The notes under the pieces: generated by a model
Database searches by the model: none
Seen by the model: only the letters and a program-made list of their open reading frames with translations
What the model was told of the DNA's origin: nothing
Made by a program: the position numbers and the translations under genes
Assembly: GCA_963754985.1 (NCBI GenBank)
Contig: CAVWIJ010000012.1
Span: 514,249-578,248, forward strand
DNA from: an uncultured Holophagae bacterium
GTDB taxonomy: Bacteria > Acidobacteriota > Thermoanaerobaculia > Thermoanaerobaculales > Sulfomarinibacteraceae
Length of the DNA stretch: 64,000 bases
Direction of reading: 5' to 3'
Shown: piece by piece, positions 11,497-52,619 of the stretch
How the letters are laid out: the number at the start of each line of letters is the position of its first letter
Numbering within the stretch: the stretch's first letter is position 1

Positions 11497-12538
11497 GCAC
11501 GCCGCGGCGGCTCACGGTCAACTACCTCCTCGAGGACACGGCGCTGTTCGGAGGGGTCAAGATCCCGCTCCACCACGCCAACCTGCTGCACCGGCGCGGC
11601 CACCGGGTGCGGGTGCTCAGCCGGGGATGCCGGCCCGACTGGTACCCCCTCGTGGCGCCGTTCGCGACGGTGCCGGACTTCGGCGCCGACTCGGTCGCGA
11701 GAGGCCGACGTCCACGTCGCCACCTTCTGGACCACCATCGCGCCGGCGGCGGCGCTGCCGCATGGCCGGGCCGTGCACTACTGCCAGGGCTTCGAGGCCT
11801 CGTACACGCACAACCTCGATGAGCACCCAGCGATCCTCGAGGCGCTACGCGCGGCCGCTGCCGGCCTTCGCCCTGGCGCCCCACCTTGCCGAGCTCGTGC
11901 GGAGCCGCTTCGGCCGGCCGGCACGGGTGGTGCCGCCGGCCCTCGAGCGGATGTGGCGGCCGCGCTGGCGCTGGCGGCCGGCGAGGCGGCCGCGCGTGGT
12001 CGTGGTCGCACCCCTTCGAGGTCGACTGGAAAGGGGTGCGCGACCGCCCTCGAGGCGGTGCGCCGGCTGCGCGCCGGCGGGGCCACGCTCACGCCTGGTG
12101 CGGGTGTCGCAGTGGCCGCTGTCAGCGACGCCGAGCGCGCGCTCGTCGAGCCGGACGAGTTCCACTGCCGGACCTCGACCCGCCGGCGGTGGCGCGGCTG
12201 ATCGCAGGCTGCGACCTGCTGCTCGCTCCGTCGTGGGAGCAGGAGGGCTTCGGCCTGCCGGTGCTCGAGGCAATGGCCTGCGGGGTGCCGGTGGTGGCGT
12301 CGAGCATCCAGGCTTTCGCGGGCTTCGCCACCGGGGCCGCCGAGCTGGTGCCGGCCGGCGACCCGGACGCCTTCGCAGACGCGGCCGCGAGCGATCCTCG
12401 GCGAGCCGTCGCGGTGGCGGCGAGATGCGGCGCGCCGGGCTCGCAGCTGCGGCGGCCTTCAGCGAGCGCCGGGTCGCGGACACGGTCGAGGAGGCGCTGC
12501 GCTGGGTGGCAAGCGACGCTTGGAGGACCGGCCGATGA
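11493..12538 (+). pseudogene. GT1/GT4-family glycosyltransferase with about 9 frame changes as assembled
   Basis: The GTG at 11493 overlaps the wzt stop (GTGA). Fragments in three frames are LTVNYLLEDTALFGGVKIPLHHANLL, VHYCQGFEASYTHNL, LAPHLAELVRSRFGRPARVVPPA and LLLAPSWEQEGFGLPVLEAMACGVPVVAS (the E-x7-E region of GT4). Confidence 0.6.
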
Positions 12539-16847: not shown

Positions 16848-17136
16848 TGCCCGTCTCCGTATCCGTGCCCGCATCCGCGCCGGGGAGCCTGCCCTGAGCG
16901 AGCGGCGCCCATTCGACTCGGAGCTGGCGGGCTCCTCTCAGGGCAGGCTCGAGCGCCGGAAGTCGAAGGGTCCCCATGGTCGCACGTGGGACTTACCGAT
17001 CGCGAAATGGCTGTTGCTTGACGAGACCCTTCGACTCGCCGCCCTCGCGTGCGGCTCGCTCAGGGTGACAAACGAGGACGGCTCGGAAGCGGGCGCGGAA
17101 GCGGAAGAGGAAGCGGGCGGGAGGGGCCTATGCCCC
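16848..17136. repeat. Composite intergenic repeat (locus R2): minus-type hexamer arm, 14-bp hairpin, 115-bp conserved module, plus-type hexamer arm
   Basis: A perfect 14-bp inverted repeat joins 16885-16898 and 16937-16950. The 115-bp module at 16954-17068 is about 92% identical to 22000-22114. The core CGGGCGCGGAAGCGGAAG sits at 17090-17107, and GGGGCCTATGCCCC at 17123-17136. Confidence 0.7.
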
Positions 17137-18770
17137 CCCCGCTCCTGCGGACCCCGGCCATCGTCCACCCCTCGAGGGAGCCGAGGAAGCGCTCCTCCTC
17201 TTCCTTCCAGCGCCGCCACTCCCAGCCCATCTCCGAGCGCAGGATCGGCCGCAGGGGCCGCAGCAGCGCGACCGCCTGCTCGGGATCCCACATCCCCACC
17301 CGCACCCGGCGCAGCAGCAGGTCCTCGAGGTGGAGGACGGCGCCCCAGCGCAGGTGGGCCCGCACCTCGGCCGGGCAGAGGTCGCTGTCCGGCGCGACCG
17401 GCCGCAGCTCGGCGTGCCGGCGGGCGGCGGCTGCTGCGGTCCAGGCCAGGGCGCCGAGCCGCCGGGCCATGCCACGAGCCACGGTCGTGTCGATCTCGAA
17501 GACTCGCGCCAGCCGCTCGGCGAGGTCGGCCGGCGCGAGGCCTGCGAGCGGCGTGCCCTTGGTGGCGCAGGGAGCGGCGTGGAGGGCCCGCTCCTCGGGC
17601 AGCAGCCGGAGGACGGCGTCCACCGCCTCCTCGGCCGTGCTGCGCCAGGTGGTGAGCTTGCCGCCGGCCACCGAGAGCGCGCCGTCCTCGTCCCAGATGG
17701 CCTCCTCGCGGGTCGCCTCCGAGGGATCGTCGGCGTGGGTGTCGAGGATCGGTCGCAGGCCGGCGAAGGTGCCGCGCACGTCAGCCAGGGTCAGGTGCCG
17801 GTCCGGAAACGCGGCGGCCGCGGCGCGCAGCAGGTAGTCAACCTCGGCCGCCGTTGGTCGCGGGTCGTCCAGCGCGCCGTCGTGGTAGTGGTCGGTGGTG
17901 CCGACGAGCACGCCCTCGGGGTGGGGGATCAGGAACACCGGCCGGCCATCGTCGGGCGCGAGCAGGGTCACGGCGACCTCGATCGGGAGCCGCGAGCGGG
18001 CGATGATGAGGTGGATGCCGCGCGATGGCCGGACCCGGCTGCCGGCGAGGCCGAGCCGGCTGCGGAGGACGTCGGTCCAGGCGCCGGTCGCGTTGACCAC
18101 CACCTTCGCCCGGACCCGGTGGGTGCGGCCGTCGGCGAGGTCGTGCAGCAGCACCCCGGCGATCGGCGCCGGCGGGCGCCCGCTGGGCGGCGGTGACCTC
18201 GCAGCGTGTCAGCAGGTGGGCGCCGTAGTGGTGGGCGGTCGCGGCCACCGCCAGGGTGAGCCGCGCGTCGTCGGCCATCGCGTCACTGTAGGCCAGGCCG
18301 CGGTCGAGCTCGCTGACGTCGAGCCCGGGCGCGAGGGCGGCGAGCTCGTCGGCCTCGAGCTGGGCGTGGCGCTCGGGGCGGCCGGTGAGGCGGTCGTACA
18401 TCCAGAGCCCGAAGTCGATCTGCCAACCGGGCGTGCGGTCCCCGCGGTAGGCCGGGTAGAGGAAGCGGATGGGGTACACCAGATGGGGGCTGAGGCTGAG
18501 CATCCGGTCGCGCTCGCGGCACGCGAGGCGAGTGATCCGGAACTGCATCTGCTTGAGGTAGCGCAGCCCGCCGTGGATCAGCTTGGACGAGCGCGAGGAG
18601 GTGCCGGCCCCGACGTCGTCGCGCTCGACGAGCAGCGTCGACAGGCCGCGCTGCGCAGCGTCGAGGGCGATGCCGCTGCCGGTGATGCCGGCGCCGACTA
18701 CCACCAGGTCGAAGGTGTCGTCGAGGGAGGCGAGCGCCATCTGGCGCCACTGCGGGTGGAACACCGTCAC
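17060..18770 (-). CDS. glpD: FAD-dependent glycerol-3-phosphate dehydrogenase with one frame break and a 3' end running into repeat R2
   Basis: N-terminus DLVVVGAGITGSGIALDAAQRGLSTLLVERDD.GAGTSSRSSKLIHGGLRYL (tail of track ORF 17838..19829) is joined to 17060..18154 at about 18170. The candidate GTG start at 18770 overlaps the upstream stop, and an in-frame ATG lies at 18740. Confidence 0.8.
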
Positions 18771-20396
18771 ACCTCCAGCCGGTCCTCCGGGTCCAAGAGC
18801 ACGTGCGGGTTGAGGGTGCCGTCGGGATCCACCTCGGCGGCAACGCGGGCGAGCATCCGCCGGCCGAGCTCTCCCACCTCGCGCTCGAACCACGGCGCGT
18901 GCCACTGGCCGACGCCGTGGTGGTGGCTGAGCGTGACACCGGCGTCGACCAGGGCCTGGCTCGCGGCCCGCTTGACGGTCGCCCAGCGGGCGATGCTCGC
19001 CTCCGGGTCGCCGGCGCAGCGGAAGAAGAAGGTGAAGTACAGTGAGGCGCCGTCGCGGTAGGGGTGCGAGACGTGGCAGAGCACCGCCACCCGCTCGCCG
19101 TCGCCGGCCAGCGCCCCGCCGATGGCGGCTCCCACCTGCTCCCGCACGGCCGGGACCGCGGACCAGACCGCGGCGGTCTCCAGCGTGTCGGTTGCCCAGC
19201 CGAGGTCGAGCAGGGACTCGCGGAGGTAGGGGTGGCGGTAGCGGTCGCGCAGCCAGTGCCGGCCGGGCCTTGAACCGAGCACGACGCCGCGGTGGGCGCG
19301 GACGGTGGCCCGCCCGCAGAGCACGACATCGCGCACGCAGCCGCGCTCGCCGGAGCTGCCGTAGAGCAGGAGGCAGGCGTCCTCGCCCAGGCCGCGCAGA
19401 GCCAGGTAGCGCCGCACCAGGCCGGCGCCGGCCGACGCGGCGAGCCCGATCGCCATCGCCATCTGGGTCTCGCTGGCGTCGGACAGCCGGAGCAGCGTCA
19501 GCGGCACCCCGCTGACCACCAGCTCGCGCACCACATCGAGCCCCGGCTGGAGGCCGGGCAGCAAGGCGCCCTCGACGATCGTCATCGCGGGCCGGGCGCG
19601 GACCCGCAACGTCGCTTCGGTGATGACGCCGAGCCGGCCCTCGCTGCCGAGCACGAGCTGGCGCAGGTCGGGGCCGGCCGCCGAGGCGGGGCGCTCCGGC
19701 AGCCGCAGCCGCCCGGCCGGGGCGATCAGCTCGAGCCCGGCCACCATGTCCTCGATGCGGCCGTAGCCCAGCGACTCTTGCCCGGCTGAGCGGGTGGCGA
19801 CCCAGCCGCCGACGGTCGAGAGCTCCCACGACTGGGGGAAGTGGCCGAGCGTCAGCCGGTGCTCAGCAAGGGCGGACTCCACGGCAGGTCCGGTCGTGCC
19901 CGGGCCGAAGGTGGCGAGGCCCGAGACCGGGTCGAGCCGCGTCAGACCGGCCATCCGTTCGAGCTCGAGGATGAGCGTCGGCGACGAGTCGGCGACCACG
20001 TTGACGCCGCCGGTGACCGAGGTCCCGCCGCCCCAGGGGATCACTCGCACCCCGGCCCGCCGGCACTCGTCGAGGACGGCGGCGACTTCGCCGGCGTTCG
20101 CCGGGCGGCAGACGCCGTCCGGAAGGGCCGGGATGAGGCCGGTGCGCAGGCGGATGACGTCGACCAGGCCCTGGCCGCGGCAGTGGGCGAGCCGGTCGCG
20201 GGGATCGACGCTGAGCTCGCAGGGCAGCTGCGGCAGTGGGCGGGCCGGCAGAGACGGCGGCTGACCCGGGCCCACGGCGAGCGGCGGTCCAGGCGGCCCG
20301 ACCCGCCGCTCGAGCCACGCGAGGAGCTGCGGCGACGGCGGGTAGACCTCACCCTCGAACCCCCACCCGCCGAGGCGTCGCGTTCGTTGTCTGCAT
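18767..20396 (-). CDS. FAD-linked oxidase of the alkyl-DHAP synthase (AGPS)-like family with one N-terminal frame break
   Basis: Track ORF 18767..20275 shows VIPWGGGTSVTGG, GHFPQSWELSTVGGWVATRSAGQ and GVTLSHHHGVGQ. Upstream in the same frame, RRLGGWGFEGEVYPPSP lacks any start codon. The ATG at 20396 (MQTTNATPRR) is one frame off, implying an indel in the G-run near 20365. Confidence 0.75.
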
Positions 20397-20398
20397 CA

Positions 20399-20688
20399 GA
20401 GGCGAGAGTATATCTCCGCTTCCCCTTCCGCTTCCGCGCCCGCATCCGCTTCCGAGTCCGCTTCCGGATTGGGGGCAGGGGGGGAGTCCCTCGCGGGGTG
20501 CCGCCGCAGCACCGCCCGCGGGGTGGAGTCTGAACCGCCACCGAGCCTTTCCCGATCGATCGCGACGCAGTGGTGAAGGTCAAATCGGGCGCGGAAGCGG
20601 GCGCGGAAGCGGAAGGGGGCACGGGCACGGAGACGGGCACGGGCACTGAAGCGGAAGCGGAAGCGGATCAGGCCGAGCGGTCTGACGA
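20399..20688. repeat. Composite intergenic repeat (locus R3) with a perfect 22-bp inverted hexamer-arm pair
   Basis: CCCCTTCCGCTTCCGCGCCCGC (20422-20443) is the exact reverse complement of 20597-20618, with a 153-nt spacer. Further GGCACG/GCGGAA hexamers run to about 20665. Confidence 0.75.
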
Positions 20689-21874
<1,186 letters not shown>

Positions 21875-21943
21875 TGTTTCCTAGCGCTGCCCGGACTGCA
21901 AGCAGACTCGACCGACGTGACCGACGACGTTCGATGGACCTTT

Positions 21944-22210
21944 CTCCCGTGCCCGATTCCGCGCCCGGGGAGCCTGCCCTGAGCGAGCGGCGCGATCAGC
22001 GCCGGGAGTCGAAGGGTCCCCATGGTCGCACGTGGGACTTACCGATCGCGAAATGGCTGTTGCTTGAGGAGATCCTTCGACTCGCTGTCCTCGCGGACAG
22101 CTCGCTCAGGATGACTCGTGGGGGGAGCGGGGAAGGAAGGTGGACTCGGGCCCGGAAGCGGAAGCGGAAGCGGGAGGGGGCCTTATCACCTCTCACCTAT
22201 CGCCTATCAC
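21944..22210. repeat. Composite intergenic repeat (locus R4), the second copy of the 115-bp module, plus a heptamer tract
   Basis: The module lies at 22000-22114. Hexamers CCCGGAAGCGGAAGCGGAAGCGGG lie at 22150-22173. Four 7-nt units CCTTATC/ACCTCTC/ACCTATC/GCCTATC lie at 22181-22208. Confidence 0.7.
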
Positions 22211-22222
22211 TACAATGTCTCC

Positions 22223-25054
22223 GTGAGCGCTCTCACCGACCACCAGCGCCGGACCCTGGCCGACAGCGGCTGCGAGGTGCGCAGCGACGCCCTGACCCGG
22301 ACGCTCTACGCGACCGACGCCTCGATCTACCGGATCGAGCCGCGCGCGGTCGCCTTCCCGCGCTCGGCGGCCGAGACCGCGGCGCTCCTGCGCGCGGCGG
22401 CCGGCGCCGGGCTGTCCGTCATCCCCCGCGGCGCCGGCACCGGGCTGGCCGGCGGCGCGCTCGGCGACGGCGTGGTCGTCGACCTCGCCCGCCACAGCCG
22501 GTGGATCGACGGCCTCGACCTCGAGCGGCGGACCGTCCGCGTCGGCGCCGGGGTCGTGCTCGACCAGCTCAACGCCTTCCTCCGTCCCCACGGGCTGTGG
22601 TTCGGGCCGGACGTCGCCACCTCCTCCCGGGCCACCCTGGGCGGGATGATCGCCAGCAACTCCTCCGGCGCCCACGCGCCGGTCTACGGCACCACCGCCG
22701 ACCACGTCGAGGCCCTGGAGGTGGTGCTGGCGGACGGCACCGTGGCCCTCGTCGGGCGGGACGGCGCCGGGCTCGAGACGCTGCGCGACGAGGTCGACCG
22801 GGTCGTGGCGCGAGCATGCGGCCGCGATCGCCGACCGACTGCCGGACCTGCTCGTCAAGCACTGGCCGGGCTACGGTCTCGACGAGGTCCTGCGCCACCC
22901 GGGCGATCTCACGCGCCTGCTGTGCGGCAGCGAGGGCACGCTCGCGGCCGTGAGCTCGGCCGTGCTCCGGGTCGTGCCGTTGCCCACGCGCCGCAGCCTC
23001 GGGGTCGTCTTCTTCGCCTCGATGGCCGAGGCCATGGCGGCGGCGGTCGAGCTGCTCGAGCTCGAGCCGGCGGCGATCGAGCACATCGACCGACCCGCTC
23101 GTCGACCAGACCCGCGGCCAGCGCGAGTTCGCAGGCGGCGCGGGCCCTGCTCGGACTCGACGATGAGCCCTGCGAGTCGATCCTGATCGTCGAGCTCTTC
23201 GGCGAGGCGGAGGACCGCCTCGAATCGCTCGTCCGCTCCCGGCTCGGGTCGCGGCGGATGGCGCTGCGCGACCCGGCCGAGCAAGAGTTGGTGTGGGGTG
23301 TGCGGCGTGCCGGCCTGTCGCTGCTGAGCTCGATGCCAGGGTCGGCCAAGCCGGCCACCGGCATCGAGGACGTCTGCGTGCGGCCGCGCGACCTGCCGGC
23401 GTACGTGGCGGGGCTCCAGGAGATCCTGGCCCGGCTCGGCCTGAGCGCCTCGTTCTACGGCCACGTCGCGTCGGGCGAGCTCCACGTGCGGCCGGTCCTC
23501 GACCTGCACCGCGCCGAGGACGTCGCGAGGCTGCGCCGGGTCGCCGACGAGGTCGCGGACCTGTGCCGGCGCTTCGGCGGGTCGTTGGCCGCCGAGCACG
23601 GCCTCGGCATCGCACGCACCGAGTACCTCGAGGGCCAGGTCGGACCGGAGCTCGTCGCGGCCACGGCCGCGATCAAGCGGCTGTTCGATCCCGCCGGCGT
23701 GCTGAACCCGGGAAAGGTGGTCGACGACGGCCGCTATCGCATCGACCGCGACCTCCGGCTCGGCCCCGGCTCCGAGCTGGTGCTGACCTTCGCCGAGACC
23801 CTCGGCTTCGTCGACCGCGACCGCTCCTTCGCCGGCAACCTCGAGCAGTGCAACGGCTGCGGCGGCTGCCGCAAGGACGCGCCCACCATGTGCCCGACCT
23901 TCGTCGCCACCGGCGAGGAGATCCAGTCGACGCGCGGCCGGGCCAACACCATCCGGGCGGTGCTCGAGGGGCGGCTGGCCGCCGGCAGGCTGGACTCCGA
24001 GGAGCTCAGCGAGGCCCTCGAGAACTGCCTGTCGTGCAAGGCCTGTCGCCGCGAGTGTCCGTCCAACGTCGACCTCGCGCTGCTCAAGGCCGAGCTGCTG
24101 CACGCCCGCCACCGGCTTGCCGGCGTGCCCCTGCGCGACCGAGTCATTGCCGCGGCCGACGTCCTCGGCCGCCTCGGCTCGAGCGTGCCGTGGCTCGCCA
24201 ACGCGGTCGCCGGCTCGGCGCCGGGCCGCCGCCTCATCGCAGCCGCGCTCGGCTTCGACCCCTCCCGCCCGCTGCCCGCCTTCGCCGGGCAGCGCTTCGA
24301 CCGCTGGTTCGCCGCCCGGCCGCGGCCTTCGCCCGGCAGGAGGGGCCGAGTCGTGCTCTGGGACGACACCTGGGTCCGCTACCACGAGCCCGGGATCGGT
24401 CGCGCTGCGGTGGCGGTGCTCGACGCCGCGGGCTACGAGGTGGTGCTGGCGGAGGGCCGCCGCTGCTGCGGCCGGCCGGCGGCCAGCCGCGGGTTGCTCG
24501 ACGACGTGCGGCGCCTCGGCGAGCACAACGTTGCCCTCCTCCGTGATTTCGCCGAGGGCGCGTCGATCGTCTTCCTCGAGCCTTCCTGTTACTCGATGTT
24601 CATCGACGAGTACCGGCAGCTCCGGATCCCCGGCGCGGCCGAGGTCGCGGCGCGCTGCGTGCTCTTCGAGGAGCTACTGGCCGGCCTGCTGGGCTCGCAG
24701 CCCGACGCGCTGGCATTCCGCGGCGACGGCCTGCGGGTGGCGATCCACGGTCACTGCCACACCAAGGCCCTCGGCGACGCCCGCCTGCTGCCCCGGCTCG
24801 CGCAGCGGATCCCCGGGGCGCGCGCCGAGCTCCTCGCCACCGGCTGCTGCGGGATGGCCGGGGCCTTCGGCATGATGGCGTCGAAGGCGGCCTTGTCGCG
24901 CGCGGTGGCGACGCCCCTGGTGGAGGCGATCGAGTCCCAGCCGGAAGGCACGCTGGTCGTCGCCTGCGGCACGAGCTGCCGGGCGCAGATCCGCCACCTG
25001 AGCGACGCGAAACCTCTGCACATGGCCGAGCTGCTCGCCGCCTCGCTCGCTTGA
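22223..25054 (+). CDS. Fused FAD-binding (GlcD-like) and Fe-S/CCG-domain (GlpC/GlcF-like) oxidoreductase with three +1 shifts that restore the frame
   Basis: The GTG at 22223 is in frame with track ORF 22118..25054. Motifs are PRGAGTGLAGGA, AAEHGLGI, CNGCGGCRK...CP and CLSCKACRRECP (two 4Fe-4S motifs), plus C-terminal CCG-type cysteines (ATGCCGMAG). Residues encoded at about 22808-23131 read in f3/f1 (track ORF 22950..23186). Confidence 0.8.
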   Translation: MSALTDHQRRTLADSGCEVRSDALTRTLYATDASIYRIEPRAVAFPRSAAETAALLRAAAGAGLSVIPRGAGTGLAGGALGDGVVVDLARHSRWIDGLDLERRTVRVGAGVVLDQLNAFLRPHGLWFGPDVATSSRATLGGMIASNSSGAHAPVYGTTADHVEALEVVLADGTVALVGRDGAGLETLRDEVDRVVARACGRDRRPTAGPARQALAGLRSRRGPAPPGRSHAPAVRQRGHARGRELGRAPGRAVAHAPQPRGRLLRLDGRGHGGGGRAARARAGGDRAHRPTRSSTRPAASASSQAARALLGLDDEPCESILIVELFGEAEDRLESLVRSRLGSRRMALRDPAEQELVWGVRRAGLSLLSSMPGSAKPATGIEDVCVRPRDLPAYVAGLQEILARLGLSASFYGHVASGELHVRPVLDLHRAEDVARLRRVADEVADLCRRFGGSLAAEHGLGIARTEYLEGQVGPELVAATAAIKRLFDPAGVLNPGKVVDDGRYRIDRDLRLGPGSELVLTFAETLGFVDRDRSFAGNLEQCNGCGGCRKDAPTMCPTFVATGEEIQSTRGRANTIRAVLEGRLAAGRLDSEELSEALENCLSCKACRRECPSNVDLALLKAELLHARHRLAGVPLRDRVIAAADVLGRLGSSVPWLANAVAGSAPGRRLIAAALGFDPSRPLPAFAGQRFDRWFAARPRPSPGRRGRVVLWDDTWVRYHEPGIGRAAVAVLDAAGYEVVLAEGRRCCGRPAASRGLLDDVRRLGEHNVALLRDFAEGASIVFLEPSCYSMFIDEYRQLRIPGAAEVAARCVLFEELLAGLLGSQPDALAFRGDGLRVAIHGHCHTKALGDARLLPRLAQRIPGARAELLATGCCGMAGAFGMMASKAALSRAVATPLVEAIESQPEGTLVVACGTSCRAQIRHLSDAKPLHMAELLAASLA

Positions 25055-26489: not shown

Positions 26490-26905
26490 GAAGGGCAGTC
26501 GGGAACGGGAACGGAAACCCCTCGACTCGCGACGCCCTTACGCCGCTCGCTCGGGGAAGACTCCTCGGGCGCGGATCCGGCTCCGTCCTGCGGAGTACGC
26601 CGTGACACGAGCGGGCGGGCGGGTGGTTCACCGCCTCACTGCCTCACTGCTTCGGGATCGGGGACGGCAGCCCGTCCTCATCGTCGTCTTCGCAATCTTT
26701 GCGCCTTCGCGGTTCAAGTGCCCGATGGCGGGCGCGGAGACCCTTAGACTTGCGGCGCCGTGGCGCCGCTGCGCTCAGGGCAGGCTCCACGGGCACGGGC
26801 GCGGAAGCCTTCGACTCGCGGCATCGCTTCGCCGCTCGCGCAGGGCAGGCTCGCGTCGGGCGCGGGCGGGGGATCTAACCCCTAACCCCTGTCACCTAAC
26901 TCGCT
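26490..26905. repeat. Composite intergenic repeat region (locus R6)
   Basis: GGGAACGGGAACGGAAAC lies near 26500. The unit CTTCGACTCGC...GCTCGC.CAGGGCAGGCTC occurs twice (26520-26560 and 26806-26852). Heptamers CTAACCC/CTAACCC/CTGTCAC/CTAACTC lie at 26875-26902. Confidence 0.55.
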
Positions 26906-26909
26906 TCGC

Positions 26910-29212: not shown

Positions 29213-30799
29213 ATGGCGCGCGGCGACCACATCCTGGCCATCGACCACGGCACCCAGAGCGTGCGCGCACTGCTCTTCGACCCGAGGGGCACCCTCGTCC
29301 ACAAGGCGCGGGTCGAGGTCGAGCCCTACACCTCGCCGCGGCCGGGCTGGGCGGAGCAGGACCCGGAGCTCTACTGGCGCTCGCTCGGCGAGGCGTGCCG
29401 GCTGCTGTGGGCCGCATCGTCGGTGCCGCGGGAGGCGGTCGCGGGGGTCGCCCTGACCACCCAGCGGGCGACCATGATCAACGTCGACCGCGCACGGCAA
29501 GCCGCTGCGGCCGGCCATCGTCTGGCTCGACCAGCGCCGCACCGAGGGCCTGGCGCCGGTCGGCGGCGCGTGGGGCGTCGCCTTCCGCGCTCGCGCGGAT
29601 GGCGGAGACGGTGGCCTATTTCCAGGCCGAGGCCGAGGCCAACTGGATCCATGCCAACCAGCCGCGAGGTCTGGGAGCAGACCCACAAGTACCTGTTCCT
29701 GTCCGGCTTCCTGACCCACCGCCTGGTCGGCCGCTTCGTCGACTCGGTCGGCTGCCAGGTCGGCTACGTGCCCTTCGACTACACGCGGCCTGCGCTGGGC
29801 GGGTCCACGGCGACTGGAAGTGGCGGCGCCCTGGCGATCGAGCGCGAGATGCTGCCCGAGCTCGTGCCGCCCGGCGAGGTGCTGGGCGAGATCACGGCGG
29901 CGGCCTCGGCGGCCACCGGCATCCCCGCGGGCCTGCCGCTGATCGCGGCGGCCGCCGACAAGGCCTGCGAGGTCATCGGGGCCGGCTGCCTCGAGCCCCA
30001 CGTCGCCTGCCTGTCCTACGGCACCGACGGCCACCATCAACACGACGCACCGGCGCTACGTCGAGGCGATCCCGATGATCCCGCCCTACCCGGCGGCGGT
30101 GCCCGGCGCCTACACGCTCGAGGTGCAGATCAACCGCGGCTACTGGATGGTCGTCGTGGTTCAAGCGGGAGTTCGGGCTCCGCGAGCAGCGGATCGCGGA
30201 CGAGCGCGGCATCGCGCCGGAGGAGCTCTTCGACGAGCTGGTGGCCGCCGTCCCGCCGGGCTCGATGGGGCTGGTGCTGCAGCCCTACTGGTCGCCCGGC
30301 GTCAAGGTGCCCGGGCCCGAGGCCAAGGGTGCGGTGATCGGCTTCGGCGACGTCCACACCCGGGCCCATCTCTACCGGGCGATCCTCGAGGGTCTGGCCT
30401 ACGCGCCTCCGGGAGGGGGGCGAGCGCTGCCAGCGGCGCAGCGGCGTGCCGCTGACCGAGATCCGGGTTGCCGGCGGCGGGTCGCAGAGCGACGCCGCGA
30501 TGCAGATCACGGCCGACGTCTTCGGCCTGCCCGCGGCACGGCCCCACGTCTACGAGGCCTCCGGCCTGGGAGCGGCGATCGACGCGGCCGTCGGCCTCGG
30601 GCTGCACCCCGACTTCGAAACCGCGGTCGCGGAGATGACCCGGCGCGGCCGCCAGTTCGAGCCCGACCCGGCAAGCCACGAGGTCTACGAGGGGCTCTAC
30701 CGCGAGGTCTACCTCAAGATGTACGCGCGGCTGCGGCCGCTCTACGAGGAGATCCGCAGGATCACCGGGTATCCGAAGGGGTTGGGGGAGAGGGGATAG
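29213..30799 (+). pseudogene. FGGY-family carbohydrate kinase (xylulokinase/glycerol-kinase-like) with at least 6 frame changes as assembled
   Basis: The ATG at 29213 gives MARGDHILAIDHGTQSVRALLFD. Further fragments are [70 protein letters not shown] and IRVAGGGSQSDAAMQITADVFG, spread over f2, f1, f2, f3, f1 and f2. Confidence 0.65.
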
Positions 30800-31060
30800 G
30801 GAGTAGGGCCCCCGCTTCCGCTTCCGCGCCCGCTTCCGATACCGGTTCCGCGCCCGACCTGATTCCGCTCCCGTCCCCGTTCCCGACCCGGCCGGCCCTG
30901 ATCGGGCCGCACGTCCGTGTCCGATCTTCAAGGCATCATCCGAGCTCGCGTTGCGCGCGGTTTGCGCGGCGGTGGTCGTCCCCGCCGCCAAGGTCGAGTC
31001 GTCGCGTCGGAAGCGGACTCGGGCGCGGAAGCGGAAGCGGGCGCGGGAATCAGCCACGCG
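30781..31060. repeat. Composite intergenic repeat (locus R7): heptamer/G4 tract plus a perfect 22-bp inverted hexamer-arm pair
   Basis: GGGGGAGAGGGGATAGGGAGTAGGG lies at 30784-30808 and covers the kinase stop codon. CCCGCTTCCGCTTCCGCGCCCG (30811-30832) is the exact reverse complement of 31019-31040, with a 186-nt spacer. Confidence 0.75.
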
Positions 31061-33938: not shown

Positions 33939-34691
33939 ATGGCGAGGACACCTCACGGGAGCTTGGGCAGCAGCGTGGCGGTGCGACCGGCGGAGTTCCA
34001 GATGCGCTTTCGCGAGCTTCTGGAACGGGCAGCGGCTGCGCGCAAGCCGTTGTTGGAACGACCCGCCCAGCTCGGGCCCTTCCTGACCGTTTCCCGCGAG
34101 GTCGGATCCGGCGGCGCCGAGGTGGCGCGGCTGGTCGGCCTGCGGCTCGGCTGGGCGGTATTCGACAAGGAGCTGGTCGAGGATCTCGCCCGCCGGCTCG
34201 AGCTGTCGCCCCAGATGGTCGAGCTGCTGGACGAGACTCGCTCCGACTGGTTCCACGAGACCATGCTCAGCCTCATGAACTCGAGGATCGTGCTCCAGAA
34301 CAACTACCTGTCGATGCTCGGCAAGGTCATGCACCTCGCGGCCTACGAGGGGAAGGTGATCTTCGTTGGCCGCGGCGGCCACCTGCTGCTCCCCCGTGAC
34401 GCCGGGCTGAGGGTGCGGGTGATCGCCCGGCGCGAGACCCGGCTGGAGACCTACCAGGCGCGGGAGGGGCTGAAGGCCGACGAGGCGGAGCGCGAGCTCG
34501 ACCGGCTCGAGGCTGGCCGCGCCGACTTCGTGCGCCGCCACTTCCGCCGCGAGCCGGACGACCCCTACCAGTACGACATGGTGCTCGACTCGTCGATGTT
34601 CGGGATGGAGGGCTGCGCCGAGCTGGTGTGTCGGGCGCTGGAGCTTCGCGGCTTGATTGCCAAGAAGGAGGGATTAGGGGCTCGGGACTAG
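33939..34691 (+). CDS. Cytidylate-kinase-like (AAA/P-loop kinase) family protein
   Basis: The ATG at 33939 is preceded by GAGGAGGG. FLTVSREVGSGGAEVARLVGLRLGW is the P-loop-like start of the Cytidylate_kin2 family. The last 8 codons and the stop lie inside repeat R8. Confidence 0.65.
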   Translation: MARTPHGSLGSSVAVRPAEFQMRFRELLERAAAARKPLLERPAQLGPFLTVSREVGSGGAEVARLVGLRLGWAVFDKELVEDLARRLELSPQMVELLDETRSDWFHETMLSLMNSRIVLQNNYLSMLGKVMHLAAYEGKVIFVGRGGHLLLPRDAGLRVRVIARRETRLETYQAREGLKADEAERELDRLEAGRADFVRRHFRREPDDPYQYDMVLDSSMFGMEGCAELVCRALELRGLIAKKEGLGARD

Positions 34692-34868
34692 GGGAAAGGC
34701 CGCCACCCGTCCCCGTTCTCGTCCCCGTTCCCGTTCCCGTTCCCGGGTCCGCACGCTGCTCCGCTTCTGCGCGCCGCTTCCGCGCCCGCATCGCGAGTCC
34801 GCGTCCCCCGCAGCGGCGAGCCCAACCGTCCGGGCTCGGAAGCGGACGGGGAAGCGGAAGCGGGTGGA
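34665..34868. repeat. Composite intergenic repeat (locus R8): 7-nt-phased G4 tract plus hexamer arms
   Basis: GGGATTAGGGGCTCGGGACTAGGGG lies at 34670-34694 with G-runs starting every 7 nt. (CCGTYC)n runs over 34708-34745, CGCTTCCGCGCCCGC lies near 34775, and CGGAAGCGGACGGGGAAGCGGAAGCGGG lies at 34837-34864. Confidence 0.65.
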
Positions 34869-42838: not shown

Positions 42839-42950
42839 TAGGGTCTAGGGGCTAGGCTTTAGAAGCCAGAACCGGGGCGGTAGCGTTTGGTGCGATTCCC
42901 GCCCCCGCTTCGTCGGAAGCGGGCGCGGAAGCGGAAGCGGGCACGGGGGT
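42839..42950. repeat. Heptamer tract plus hexamer-arm repeat (locus R10)
   Basis: TAGGGTC/TAGGGGC/TAGGCTT/TAGAAGC/CAGAACC lie at 42839-42873. The core CGGGCGCGGAAGCGGAAG lies at 42920-42937, preceded by the small hairpin CCCGCTTC-GTCG-GAAGCGGG. Confidence 0.6.
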
Positions 42951-48589: not shown

Positions 48590-48725
48590 CGCCGCTCATG
48601 GTAGCGCGGTCTGCCACCCGGGGCGGGTGGCTCCGGGCGGATCGAGCGTCAAAACGGGGTGCTAGACTCGCTCCGTCACGGCCGGAGCGCCACGGCGCCC
48701 GCCGCGGGAGTGAACAGCCGCCGCC

Positions 48726-51197
48726 ATGAGCATGTTGCTGCGCCGTACGCTCAATCTGTTCCGCCCCTGGCGGCGGGACGCGGCGCTCCGCTCGTCAGCG
48801 TCGTTTCGCCTGCAGTACGAGCGCTTCCGCCAGCTCCTCGCCCTCAATGACCGGATGCTGCAGCTGTTCGCCGACATCGAGGACCAGCTCTCGGCGTCGG
48901 CGCCGTTCGCGCTCGACACCACGCTGCGGCGGGTCCGCGAGGCCTCGGTCGACGTGTTCGTGATGGCGAAGAACCTGAACCAGATCACGAGCGGGCGCTT
49001 CCCGGAGCTCTACGATGCGCTCGCCGTCATCTCCGATCAGCTCGACAGCGAGCTCCAGCGCCTGCGCGGGGCCACGCCCGGGCCGCTGGTGGTCCCGGTT
49101 TCCGAGCTGCGGGCGGGCGACGCAGCGCTCGCCGGCGCCAAGATGGCGAACCTGGGGGAGGTGACCGCGGGCTGCGGCCTCGCCGTGCCGGAGGGCTTCG
49201 CCATCACCACCGCGGCCTTCGGCCGCTTCATGGAGGAGAACTGGCTGTGGGACCGCTGCGAGCGCCTGGAGGGCCTCCTCGAGGCGAACGGCCCGTCCGC
49301 CCTCAACGAGGGCTGCGCCGAGGTTCGGGCCGCCATGCTGGGTGCCGTGGTGCCGGCCGACGTGGCGGAGGCGGTGGCCGCGGCCAGCGCCGCCGCCTTC
49401 TCCGACGAGGAGGTCCTGCTGGCGGTGCGCTCGAGCGCGGTCGGCGAGGACGGCTCGGCCACCTCCCACGCCGGGATCTACCACAGCGAGCTGCACGTGC
49501 CTCGAGAGCGCCTGCTCGACAGCTACCGGGAGGTGGTCGCGAGCGCCTTCACCCCGGCGGCGGTCTCCTACCGCTACGCGCGCGGGCTGACGGCGGGCGA
49601 TTCATCAATGGCGGTCGGCTGCCTCCGGATGGTCGACGTGATGGCCAGCGGCATCATGTTCTCGCGCCCCCCCGAGTCGCCGGCCGAGGACCTGGTCGTG
49701 ATCAGCGGGTCGCGCGGCATCGCCGCAGGCATCGCCCTCGGCACCGAGGACGCCTCGATCTGGACCGGTCCCCCCGCCGGCCCCTTCGCGGGCGGTGACA
49801 CCGCGGTCGGCGAGGCCGACCTGCGGCGGCTCGCTGGCGCCGCGCGGCAGCTGGAAGAGCACTTCGGATCGGCCCAGGACGTGGAGTGGGCCATCGATAC
49901 GAGCGGACGGCTGATCGTCCTCCAGACCCGCCCGATGGTGACCATCGCGCCCGGCACGCCCCAGGAGAGCTCGCCGCTCGATGAGCTCGAGCTGCTCGTG
50001 GAAGGTGGACTGACCGCCTGCCCGGGCGTGGCTGCGGGGCCGGTCGTTCCGGTGCGGGGCGAGGCCGACCTGGCAGAGTTCCCGGACGGCGGGGTGCTGC
50101 TGGCCCACCACTCGTCCCCGGTCTTCAACCAGGTCATGACGCGCTGCGCCGCCATCGTCACCGAGGTCGGGTCGCCGACCGGGCACATGGCGATCCTGGC
50201 TCGGGAGTACGGGGTGCCCGCCATCGTCGGCATGACCGACGCGGGGCGCGCCCTCAGCCCAGGGGAGACGGTGACCGTCGACGCGCGGAACCGCCGGGTG
50301 CTGGCCGGGGCGCCCGCGCACCTGCTCGAGGGTGCGCTGCGCGAGGAGCGACCCGACTCACCGGCGATCCGCGCGCTGCGCGCGATCGCTCAGCTCGTGA
50401 CGCCCCTCCACCTCACGAACCCGGCCTCCCCGGACTTCGCGCCGCAGGCCTGCCGCACGCTGCACGACATGACCCGCTTCGTTCACGAGAAGGCCTTCGA
50501 GGGCATGTTCCACTTCGGCGACGCCGCGGCCACCGACCGCCAGAACTCCTGGCGCCTGGAGGCGCCGCTGCCGATCGACATCCGCGTCTTCGACGTCGGC
50601 GGCGGCGTCGCGGCCGACGCCCCGGCGACCGGCCGGATCTCACCGCGGACATCCTGTCGGTGCCGATGCTGGCCTTCCTCGAGGGGATGCTCGACGCGAG
50701 GATCTCGCTGGAGCGAGCCGCGGCCGGTGTCGGTGAGGGGCTTCCTGTCGGTCCTGGGCGAGAGCATGACCGGGCCGCCGCCCGACGCCCAGCAGCTCGG
50801 CCGGCTCTCCTACGCCATCGTGTCGGACCGCTACCTCAACTTCTCGACCAAGGCCGGCTACCACTTCTCGACGATCGACACCTACTGCGGGCGCAGCGCC
50901 AACAAGAACTACATCCACTTCAGGTTCTCCGGCGGGGCGGCCGACGAGCTGCGCCGGCGGCGGCGGGTCCGCTTCATCCGGCGGGTGCTCGAGGCGCTCG
51001 ACTTCCGGGTCGACGCCGGCGGCGACATCCTCCACGCGCGGCTCGACAAGTACGAGCCGGAGGTCATCCGGCAGCGCCTCGCCGACCTCGGCCGGCTGAC
51101 CCTGTGCGCCAGGCAGCTCGACATGCTGATGGGCAGCGATGAGAGCCCCGAGCGCTATGCCCAGGACTTCCTCAGCGGCCGCTTCGACCTCTTCTGA
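48726..51197 (+). CDS. PEP/pyruvate-binding and PEP-utilising (swivel His) domain protein with an uncharacterised C-terminal domain of about 270 aa
   Basis: 823-aa ORF. The ATP-grasp part shows GAKMANLGEV and VEWAIDTSGRLIVLQTRP. The swivel domain is TEVGSPTGHMAILAREYGVPAIVG. A short compensated frame excursion at about 50640-50705 reads better in track ORF 50660.. (PMLAFLEGMLDARI). Confidence 0.7.
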   Translation: MSMLLRRTLNLFRPWRRDAALRSSASFRLQYERFRQLLALNDRMLQLFADIEDQLSASAPFALDTTLRRVREASVDVFVMAKNLNQITSGRFPELYDALAVISDQLDSELQRLRGATPGPLVVPVSELRAGDAALAGAKMANLGEVTAGCGLAVPEGFAITTAAFGRFMEENWLWDRCERLEGLLEANGPSALNEGCAEVRAAMLGAVVPADVAEAVAAASAAAFSDEEVLLAVRSSAVGEDGSATSHAGIYHSELHVPRERLLDSYREVVASAFTPAAVSYRYARGLTAGDSSMAVGCLRMVDVMASGIMFSRPPESPAEDLVVISGSRGIAAGIALGTEDASIWTGPPAGPFAGGDTAVGEADLRRLAGAARQLEEHFGSAQDVEWAIDTSGRLIVLQTRPMVTIAPGTPQESSPLDELELLVEGGLTACPGVAAGPVVPVRGEADLAEFPDGGVLLAHHSSPVFNQVMTRCAAIVTEVGSPTGHMAILAREYGVPAIVGMTDAGRALSPGETVTVDARNRRVLAGAPAHLLEGALREERPDSPAIRALRAIAQLVTPLHLTNPASPDFAPQACRTLHDMTRFVHEKAFEGMFHFGDAAATDRQNSWRLEAPLPIDIRVFDVGGGVAADAPATGRISPRTSCRCRCWPSSRGCSTRGSRWSEPRPVSVRGFLSVLGESMTGPPPDAQQLGRLSYAIVSDRYLNFSTKAGYHFSTIDTYCGRSANKNYIHFRFSGGAADELRRRRRVRFIRRVLEALDFRVDAGGDILHARLDKYEPEVIRQRLADLGRLTLCARQLDMLMGSDESPERYAQDFLSGRFDLF

Positions 51198-51307
51198 GCC
51201 GCGTCGGACGGCCGCCAGGGCCTACGGCCCGCGTGCGCCGAGTGGCCTAGCCCGCACGCTCCTAGTGTGCGCTGCGGCCTGGCCCTTGTCCGCAGCCTGG
51301 CTGATGT

Positions 51308-51572
51308 TCATGACCCGCGTGGCGAGGCGCTGCCCCCCTCCTCGTAGTAGGCGATGCGAACCACGTCACCCGCCGCCGGGGTGGCGTTCACCTTGGCGTC
51401 GGCGATCGAGTACTCGAGCTCGTCATTTGGCGGCGGCCTCGTCGCGCAGGACCAACACCTGCGCGGCCTCGTCGAAGGCGACCACCGTTCCTTGAACCAC
51501 CTGGGGCGGGTTGCACCCCGCAAGGGCCAGGCTGACCGCGACCGCAGCGCAGATCAGGGCGAGCGATCTCAT
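51308..51572 (-). CDS. Small lipoprotein with 1-2 frame breaks and an uncertain 3' end
   Basis: The ATG at 51572 gives MRSLALICAAVAVSLALAGC, a classical lipobox. The sequence continues in 51308..51523 (NDELEYSIADAKVNATPAAGDVVRIAYYEEGG). Confidence 0.4.
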
Positions 51573-51573
51573 C

Positions 51574-52619
51574 TCATCCTCCCTGCCCTCGACCGCCGGT
51601 CGAGACATTTCGCGACGCGCGTTCCTCCATGACGCCCTTCACGAGGAGGGCGATGATCACCCCGCTGATGCCGATGCCGGCGGTCAGGATCATGATCGAG
51701 GAGGCGATCTGGAACTGCGAGCTGCTTGAGCAGCACCGAGGCGCAGGCGATGAAGATGGTGACCGCGAAGAGCAGGCGGATCGAGTAGCCGCGCACGTAC
51801 TTGACGGCCACCGTGCCGAGCTGCGCGCCGACCGCCGCGCCGAGCAGCATCCACATCGCCGCGATCAGGTCGACCCGGCCCTTGACGCCGTAGGTGAACG
51901 CGCCGTAGGCGCCGGTGATCATCACCTCGAACAGGTCGGTGCCCACCGCCACCAGCGGTCGGGCAGCCGACGAGGTAGATCAGCGCCGGCATGCGGATGA
52001 AGCCGCCGCCGACGCCGAGCACGCTGGCGACGACGCCGGTGATCAGGCCGACCAGGACCGGCAGCCACAGCGAGCAGGTGATGCCGGAGGCCTTGAAGTG
52101 GATCATCGGCGGGATGCGGATCCGCTGCAGCCGCTGGGCGAAGGTCTCGGCCGGTCGCCGGCGCCGTGCCCTCGATCGGCGCCTTGCGCGCTGCGGCGCG
52201 CGTGGCTGATGTAGTCGTAGAGCACGTAGCTGCCGATCAGCGCGAGGAAGACGATGTAGATCTTGCGGATGCACCGACTCGGCGAGCCCGACGCGCTCGA
52301 GGTACATGACCAGGCTCGCGCCGAGCTCCATGCCGACGGTCGTGCCGACGATCATGGAGACGCCGAGCCGGACGTCGACGTTGCCGAACTTGCCGTGGCG
52401 GATCGTCGAGACGATCGACTTGCCGCCCATGTGGGCGAGGTCGGTGCCGATGGCGTAGGGCATCGGGAAGCCGAAGATGTTGAGCGCCGGGGTGACGATC
52501 CAGGCGCCGCCGATGCCGAAGAAGCCGCCGCAGACGCCGACGGTGAAGCCGATCAGCAGCAGGAGCAGGACGTTGAAGTGGATTCCGGCGATGGGCAGGT
52601 AGATGGTGAAGAAGTCCAT
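51574..52619 (-). pseudogene. TSUP (TauE/SafE-like) permease with a long central loop and at least 4 frame changes as assembled
   Basis: The N-terminus lies in 51690..52619 (GFFGIGGAWIVTPALNIFGFPM). The second repeat is VLGVGGGFIRMPALIYLVG, followed by GTDLFEVMITGAYGAFTYGVKGRVD in 51569..51952. The last helix is QFQIASSIMILTAGIGISGVIIALL, ending at the TGA at 51574-51576. Confidence 0.6.

Follow-up and report, generated by a model that had tools for sequence, protein, structure and literature searches.

A spacer between two genes in the genome of an uncultured Holophagae bacterium carries a perfect inverted repeat of 22 nt, and the question raised by this locus is whether such a pair records something peculiar to one spacer or reflects a property of the genome at large. 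The locus lies in a stretch of 64,000 nt (hereafter the window), which is part of an assembly (G000) of 4.73 Mb and 70% G+C in 32 contigs, rated 72% complete. As a sequence-only reading of the window had reported, the 22-mer CCCCTTCCGCTTCCGCGCCCGC at 20422-20443 recurs after a gap of 153 nt as its perfect reverse complement, GCGGGCGCGGAAGCGGAAGGGG, at 20597-20618, and the pair is extended by a repeat finder to 34 nt at 91% complementarity. The same reading had taken the 22/22 match as a sign of recent origin or selection and had raised the idea of an insert with cargo.

The aminotransferase/AGPS spacer

Both arms were confirmed to lie in non-coding DNA between an aminotransferase gene and an AGPS-like gene, as had been proposed. 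The right flank encodes a class I/II aminotransferase (Aminotran_1_2), and the left flank encodes an FAD-linked oxidase, for which alkyldihydroxyacetonephosphate synthase is the best relative of solved structure (2uuu, E 6.8e-70); both genes are on the minus strand. Relative to an ortholog with 85-88% identity, the aminotransferase changes frame at approximately 21227-21258. Its N-terminal part occupies 21227..21874, as judged from the Aminotran_1_2 match and ortholog comparison, and its C-terminal part continues in a different frame at 20692..21258. The true stop codon (20689..20691), located like the C-terminal part by tblastn with the L001 ortholog, is 19 nt from the right arm. Because of this frameshift near 21230, a 492-codon open reading frame (20396..21874) crosses the arms. 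The read-through had been noticed before and stands; the accompanying estimate of about 100 spurious residues is too low, the number being approximately 277, of which about 97 lie over the spacer. These 97 residues gave no Pfam match.

The AGPS-like gene (18767..20393, minus strand) has a called GTG start at 20275 that is probably too far downstream, and a conserved N-terminus, RRLGGWGFEGEV, is encoded upstream of this GTG. Comparison with relatives places the conserved ATG at 20394..20396 on the minus strand, which in the assembly is offset by 1 nt from the frame of that N-terminus (20360-20396). The two frameshifts (at approximately 21230 and at 20360-20396), together with the 72% completeness, suggest indel errors in the assembly; the other reading of them is that they mark real pseudogenes. 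Gene callers will read through hexamer arrays of the kind described below, and the frameshifts at this locus lengthen or truncate both neighbouring genes.

A -10-like TATACT (20407..20412, minus strand) is situated directly after the left arm. It is kept 8-10 nt upstream of the AGPS-like ATG in six related genomes, distant ones included, and L001 has TATAAA at this place; the conserved box suggests a putative leaderless promoter. The left arm ends 2 nt from the box, so that it covers the -35 and upstream region. The pattern TAnnnT also occurs 6-10 nt before the start codon of many other array-adjacent genes, and leaderless mRNAs seem to be common in the lineage. A consensus scan of 20200-20800 found neither a sigma-70 consensus promoter nor a hairpin followed by a T-tract terminator, and Rfam covariance models gave no match in 19500-23000 at E up to 1.

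Each arm is an array of tandem hexamers, delimited by the repeat finder at 20415-20466 and 20586-20667. The left arm (20415..20468, minus strand) contains nine in-phase hexamers with a period of 6, which are TCCGCT-type on the plus strand and CGGAAG/CGGGCG-type on the minus strand, where they point at the AGPS-like gene. The right arm (20586..20669, plus strand) contains fourteen hexamers and points toward the 3' end of the aminotransferase gene; in order, it is made up of five CGGGCG/CGGAAG units, a CGGGCA/CGGAGA block (GGGGCA, CGGGCA, CGGAGA, CGGGCA, CGGGCA), one CTGAAG, two CGGAAG, and one CGGATC. The 119-nt interior (20467..20585) includes a small internal GC-rich hairpin and is unique, its best foreign match in the genome being 28 nt. 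The absence of a second copy elsewhere in the genome leaves the suggested insert with cargo without support, and a MITE with cargo was rejected at this locus on the same ground. Only ATC recurs beside both arms, which is too short to count as a target-site duplication, and no empty version of the spacer was found among sister genomes.

Folding the spacer, a check proposed by the sequence-only reading, showed that the arms can form a long stem. The gene-sense strand is predicted to fold into a long interrupted arm-arm stem both as RNA (-145.6 kcal/mol, z -3.7) and as DNA (-79.3 kcal/mol, z -4.3). What comes next after this stem is AUAUACUCU, not a U tract.

A family of polar hexamer arrays

Against composition alone, the 22-nt match is far beyond chance: in 300 composition shuffles of the spacer, the longest inverted match had a mean of 9.5 nt and a maximum of 16 nt. 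Both arms are tandem hexamer arrays, and therefore the match is unremarkable; it arises because the two arms share the common word CGGGCG-CGGAAG-CGGAAG. When the unit order was shuffled within both arms, a match of at least 22 nt was obtained in 3.9% of trials, and the exact 22-mer has 7 occurrences in the genome. Across the 136 facing array pairs identified genome-wide, the median length of the longest perfect inverted match is 15 nt, with 14 pairs at 22 nt or more. Left arms re-paired with right arms of other loci gave a mean of 15.7 nt, compared with 15.1 nt for true partners, and matches of at least 22 nt were found in 12% of permuted pairs and 10% of true ones. The right arm of this locus matched foreign left arms over at least 22 nt in 41 of 135 comparisons, and arm lengths are uncorrelated (rho 0.03). 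True partners are no more complementary than unrelated arms, so that recent origin or selection cannot be read from the 22/22 identity as had been claimed; co-evolution of the two arms was rejected on the same results. The 22-mer is an expected by-product of two opposed hexamer arrays and carries no locus-specific signal.

The two arms are independent members of a young (CGG-RRR)n array family located at intergenic edges. Within the window, the 13-mer GCGGAAGCGGAAG, with one mismatch allowed, was found 19 times against 0.34 expected, and at least 10 spacers identified by eye consist of a CTTCCG-type array, 30-200 nt of other sequence, and a CGGAAG-type array. Periods of 6 (109 runs) and 12 (99 runs) are enriched compared with the other periods between 3 and 11 (0-18 runs), and higher-order periods of 12 and 18 nt are present in the arrays. 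Approximately 600 arrays were found in the genome when an array was defined as at least four CGGNNN hexamers containing GGAAG, with CGGAAG (1388) and CGGGCG (819) as the main units. The succession of units follows a grammar in which CGGGCG comes after itself 61 times and each other transition occurs more than 400 times. Perfect runs number 171 for four units, 98 for five, and 13 for six, which is a sharp fall past five. CGGGAA-type arrays are present on both sides of only three spacers, too few for a same-type pairing test.

The placement of the arrays was assessed with a home-made, codon-bias-based gene set covering about 70% of the genome, and distances to gene starts are approximate. Fully intergenic arrays account for 566 of the 600 (94%), at a gene coverage of 69%. 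The purine-rich strand points to the nearer gene in 436 arrays and to the farther gene in 127; gene starts and gene ends are pointed at with about equal frequency, independent of gene direction. Among neighbouring arrays no more than 600 nt apart, 136 pairs have the facing layout (CTTCCG...CGGAAG) and 6 the opposite one. When the 350 nt on either side of 595 arrays were considered, a complementary stretch was present on the inner side in 384 cases and on the outer side in 6. Single arrays obey the orientation rule too (137:54), and the canonical-unit fraction is 0.729 in both single and paired arrays (p 0.74). The array, and not the pair, is the unit of the family.

Sense-strand CTTCCG arrays after stop codons begin within 50 nt in 158 of 265 cases, mostly at 10-50 nt, and sense-strand CGGAAG arrays lie 100-300 nt past stop codons. 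Among spacers of 150-1000 nt, arrays are present in 27% of convergent, 13-18% of tandem, and 15% of divergent ones. Three near-identical tight hairpins have the opposite layout, (CGGAAG)n GCGGGGG, a 5-nt loop, and CCCGC(TTCCGC)n, and these represent three of the six '+-' pairs in G000.

Other repeats share the spacers with the hexamers. A dispersed module of approximately 156 nt lies between hexamer arms at 21960-22115 and at about 16951-17068; it has approximately 130 BLAST hits in the genome, of which a dozen or more are near full length and many are to its first 62 nt. Tracts of heptamers such as TATCACC and CTAACCC are located between hexamer arrays and genes, both genome-wide and in the window (22184-22210, 26875-26902, 30784-30811, 34670-34697, and 42839-42873). 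The spacers are mosaics of repeat modules, and the interior of the aminotransferase/AGPS spacer is private.

Turnover of arrays among related genomes

The nearest public relatives are MAGs labelled Holophagae, Thermoanaerobaculia or Sulfomarinibacteraceae (Acidobacteriota). Two of them are collinear with the window, namely G010 and G007, the genome to which L001 belongs. Their gene nucleotide identities are 79-94%, mostly 85-92%, apart from 73-78% in one or two blocks, and almost no spacer aligns with these two genomes. The sequence-only reading had allowed for relatives in which the aminotransferase/AGPS spacer carries no arms. The near relatives G007 and G010 keep clear facing arms, and those of G006 are weaker. 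In G007 and G010, the orthologous spacer consists of facing CGGGAA arrays around a conserved 46-nt interior; in G000, CGGAAG arms surround the 119-nt interior, which is unrelated to the 46 nt of the sisters; and the arms of G006 are CGGGCA-like. In folds of the orthologous spacers, a long stem is predicted for G000 (z -3.6), G007 (z -3.1), and G010 (z -1.9), and the fold of G006 is not significant (z -0.1). More distant relatives have heptamer arrays or no arrays in this spacer.

The same switch of unit, mainly CGGAAG in G000 compared with CGGGAA in G007 and/or G010 with the facing layout kept, was identified at six or seven orthologous spacers, which therefore indicates fast array turnover and genome-wide homogenisation. 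Arrays change by gain, loss, and replacement of units, and the unit is homogenised across the genome. The 18-mer CGGAAGCGGGCGCGGAAG occurs 241 times in G000, 19 times in the sister genome containing L001, and 0 times in three further genomes. Three successive GGGAAC units, with one mismatch allowed, were counted 196 times in G000, 283 times in the genome containing L001, and at most 11 times in the others. Of the eight genomes sampled from the genus, only four gave matches to the CGGAAG 15-mer (404, 89, 52, and 33 copies), and at most two copies were counted in 33 genomes of the family and order.

Several regions of the window also differ in length between these genomes. The repeat-filled spacer 26623-26908 (285 nt), which lies between CGGGCGGGCGGG-like direct repeats, has a counterpart of 23 nt in G007; in G010, the orthologous spacer contains six tandem units of approximately 120 nt made of CGGGAA and CGGAAG arrays. 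The region 48615-51617 (approximately 3 kb), with a PPDK_N / PEP-utilizers gene (48726-51197), corresponds to only 115-128 nt in G007 and G010. The stretch 11579-12350 (771 nt), located within a region that encodes a glycosyltransferase / GNAT-like protein, is unaligned to G007, where there is a 9-nt gap, and aligned to G010.

The best explanation overall, to which we assign a probability of roughly 0.6, is a polar array family with genome-wide homogenisation of its unit and a putative role at transcript boundaries.

Possible role, alternatives and comparable repeats

The boundary role itself is proposed tentatively: the arrays may be polar transcript-boundary elements that offer Rho an entry site and, where transcription covers both arms, also form a hairpin. 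A polymerase leaving a gene, in sense at its 3' end or in antisense at its 5' end, would first transcribe a C-rich, G-poor (CUUCCG/CGCCCG)n tract, and a polymerase entering the gene would transcribe the purine-rich complement. A (CUUCCG)n tract beginning 10-50 nt after the stop codon would be a plausible Rho entry site, and with continued transcription the C-rich tract could pair with the purine arm into a long hairpin. At the locus studied here, such a hairpin would close the aminotransferase transcript just before the putative leaderless -10 box of the AGPS-like gene. At the approximately half of the arrays that are upstream of gene starts, a boundary role is limited to antisense or read-in transcripts.

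Several observations agree with this proposal. Over the 80 nt that follow a stop codon, the C-minus-G excess is +0.14 at gene ends with arrays and 0.00 at those without, and this C-rich, G-poor composition would fit a Rho utilisation site. Canonical hairpin-plus-T terminators are rare, having been found at only 72 of 1996 gene ends and at two of 184 ends with arrays (p 0.059, a weak depletion), and rho is encoded in the genome. The units found at orthologous sites (CTTCCG, TTCCCG, TGCCCG, and CGCCCG) all give a pyrimidine-rich, G-poor exit strand in a 6-nt phase. The long stems predicted for the spacer in G000, G007, and G010 also agree with the proposal, and the fold of G006, which is not significant, speaks against it. 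The boundary model, like selection on composition alone, fails to explain two exact units at 600 loci or the unit switch between sisters. The dominance of two units and the switch would suggest either homogenisation between loci or a trans-acting factor with sequence specificity. Binding of CsrA to GGA motifs was also considered and is unsupported, no CsrA gene having been found in the 72%-complete genome.

The arrays could, in an unlikely alternative, be bound by a protein with DNA sequence specificity (a nucleoid-associated factor, an insulator, or a polar roadblock, for instance) that reads CGG in a 6-bp phase and whose specificity for the variable triplet differs between sister species. 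This would agree with the invariant CGG phase in which the other three bases switch (CGGAAG, CGGGAA, and CGGGCA), with the genome-wide homogeneity of unit use, with the rarity of CGGGCG after itself (61 times, compared with more than 400 for other transitions), and with the coverage of the -35 and upstream region at leaderless promoters. The drop in perfect runs past five units (98 runs of five, 13 of six) speaks for it as well, although this length cliff could reflect the instability of long perfect repeats. The location of half of the arrays at gene 3' ends speaks against it.

Just as improbable is a REPIN- or MITE-like selfish element, in which facing arrays and their interior would form a non-autonomous hairpin copied by RAYT or IS200/IS605 TnpA. 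Like the REP/BIME/REPIN families, the hexamer arrays have hundreds of intergenic copies, over-represented inverted doublets (the 136:6 orientation bias of pairs), hairpin folding, and mosaic spacers with other modules. Whole spacers are replaced between sister genomes, a filled and an empty site can be compared at 26623-26908 and its 23-nt counterpart in G007, with the flanking direct repeats noted above, and some interiors are related, with approximately 10 compact pairs sharing a core of 27-28 nt and a linked group of 19. In REPINs copied by RAYT transposases, however, doublets are better conserved than singlets (Bertels and Rainey, 2011; PMC3116915), whereas here paired arrays are no purer than single ones and true partners are matched no better than strangers. 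The interior of the locus is unique, as are 93 of 119 interiors, arm spacing is continuous from 27 to 210 nt instead of discrete, and the arms are not self-palindromic. The genome has three Y1_Tnp genes, none with arrays within 2.5 kb, and Y1_Tnp was found in all eight genomes of the genus, including four without a match to the CGGAAG 15-mer. Of four REPIN/RAYT properties tested, the over-representation of inverted doublets is present, and discrete spacing, better-conserved doublets, and a RAYT gene flanked by and tracking the repeats are absent. A RAYT link was rejected, as no Y1_Tnp gene is flanked by arrays and Y1_Tnp does not track arrays across the genus.

The compact pairs are the most REPIN-like subset of the family. 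They are located in G000 at C12:318531-318724, C12:327703-327787, C4:152435-152524, C30:1956-2042, and other sites, and their conserved 27-28-nt centre, ACGGCTCGYGRRTCGRGGG.CT.CGCAT, occurs in either orientation.

Functionless microsatellites, expanded by replication slippage and unequal recombination in unconstrained intergenic DNA, are quite unlikely. Such an origin would account for the different copy numbers and units in orthologous spacers, for the six-fold tandem of an approximately 120-nt unit at one spacer of G010, and for the higher-order periods of 12 and 18 nt, and no function has been assigned to comparable published repeats (PMC4692102). Under neutral slippage, one would expect neither strict polarity toward the nearest gene, nor the dominance of two units at 600 loci, nor a facing layout that is kept in orthologous spacers despite replacement of the sequence. 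A locus-specific recent inverted duplication, or an insertion with the 153-nt interior as cargo, is very improbable: the 22/22 identity that speaks for it exceeds composition-based chance by far, but permuted partner arms match as well, the exact 22-mer recurs in the genome, the interior has no second copy, and arms are already present at the orthologous site in sister genomes.

Among known repeats, the closest kind to this polar array family is the abundant intergenic repeats of 6-9 nt from Xanthomonas and Nostoc (Rehm et al., 2015). Their heptamers, GGGAATC and GGGGA(C/T)T, are abundant and intergenic with unknown function, are placed by the nearest ORF whatever its direction, are sometimes inverted, and vary between close relatives (Rehm et al., 2015; PMC4692102). 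The hexamers resemble them in having short tandem units at hundreds of non-coding sites (approximately 600 arrays, 566 of them intergenic), in a strand and position set by the nearest ORF irrespective of direction (436:127; singles 137:54), in inverted array pairs that can form stem-loops, and in the occupation of the same spacers in close relatives with varying length and sequence. They differ in a unit of 6 nt, in the alternation of two units with a grammar, and in the switching of the unit between sisters. It is also the C-rich strand of the hexamers, not the G-rich one, that has its 5' end beside the ORF. No run of four G3 tracts is present in CGGAAG/CGGGCG, where GG or GGG is split by C, and the hexamer arrays are predicted to be incapable of forming a canonical G-quadruplex. 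The rule published by Rehm et al. (2015) applies to the heptamer tracts of G000, in which the 5' end of the G-rich strand is nearer the ORF in 48 of 57 cases (48:9).

Beggiatoaceae, cyanobacteria, and Bacteroidetes have TAACTGA direct repeats at more than 100 intergenic sites, for which a regulatory role has been proposed (MacGregor, 2015; PMC4679880). These share with the hexamer arrays one short unit in tandem at well over a hundred intergenic sites; unlike the arrays, they are AT-rich, hardly ever inverted, and placed within a few nucleotides of the start codon, upstream of it and on a single strand with respect to the gene (PMC4679880).

Lineage-specific amplification of short tandem units at many intergenic sites is also a property shared with STRR, the short tandemly repeated repetitive sequences of heterocystous cyanobacteria. 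These are reportedly heptamers, as described by Mazel and colleagues in 1990, and differ from the present arrays in that unit length and in belonging to another phylum. We know of no polarity rule or facing-pair layout described for STRR.

The 22-mer is real but ordinary in its genome, where polar hexamer arrays enclose hundreds of spacers, including the one between the aminotransferase and AGPS-like genes. The family is unusual in three ways, namely its strict polarity to the nearest gene, the similarity of single arrays to paired ones, and the concerted unit switch in sisters, none of which is accounted for by neutral slippage or by a model based on hairpins alone. As a long shot, the arrays might be the cis half of a genome-wide boundary system, of which a trans factor, either a binding protein or a writing enzyme, would read the CGG 6-nt phase plus a triplet. 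Its specificity would have changed from CGGGAA to CGGAAG/CGGGCG between sister species, with hundreds of spacer edges rewritten in step, and every gene boundary would receive a polar signal that stops exiting polymerases. Abundant short intergenic repeats are known from Xanthomonas, cyanobacteria, and Beggiatoaceae, without known function. With an orientation rule as clean as this, few canonical terminators, and near relatives distinguished only by their unit, the lineage would be a good system for testing such repeats as transcription boundaries.
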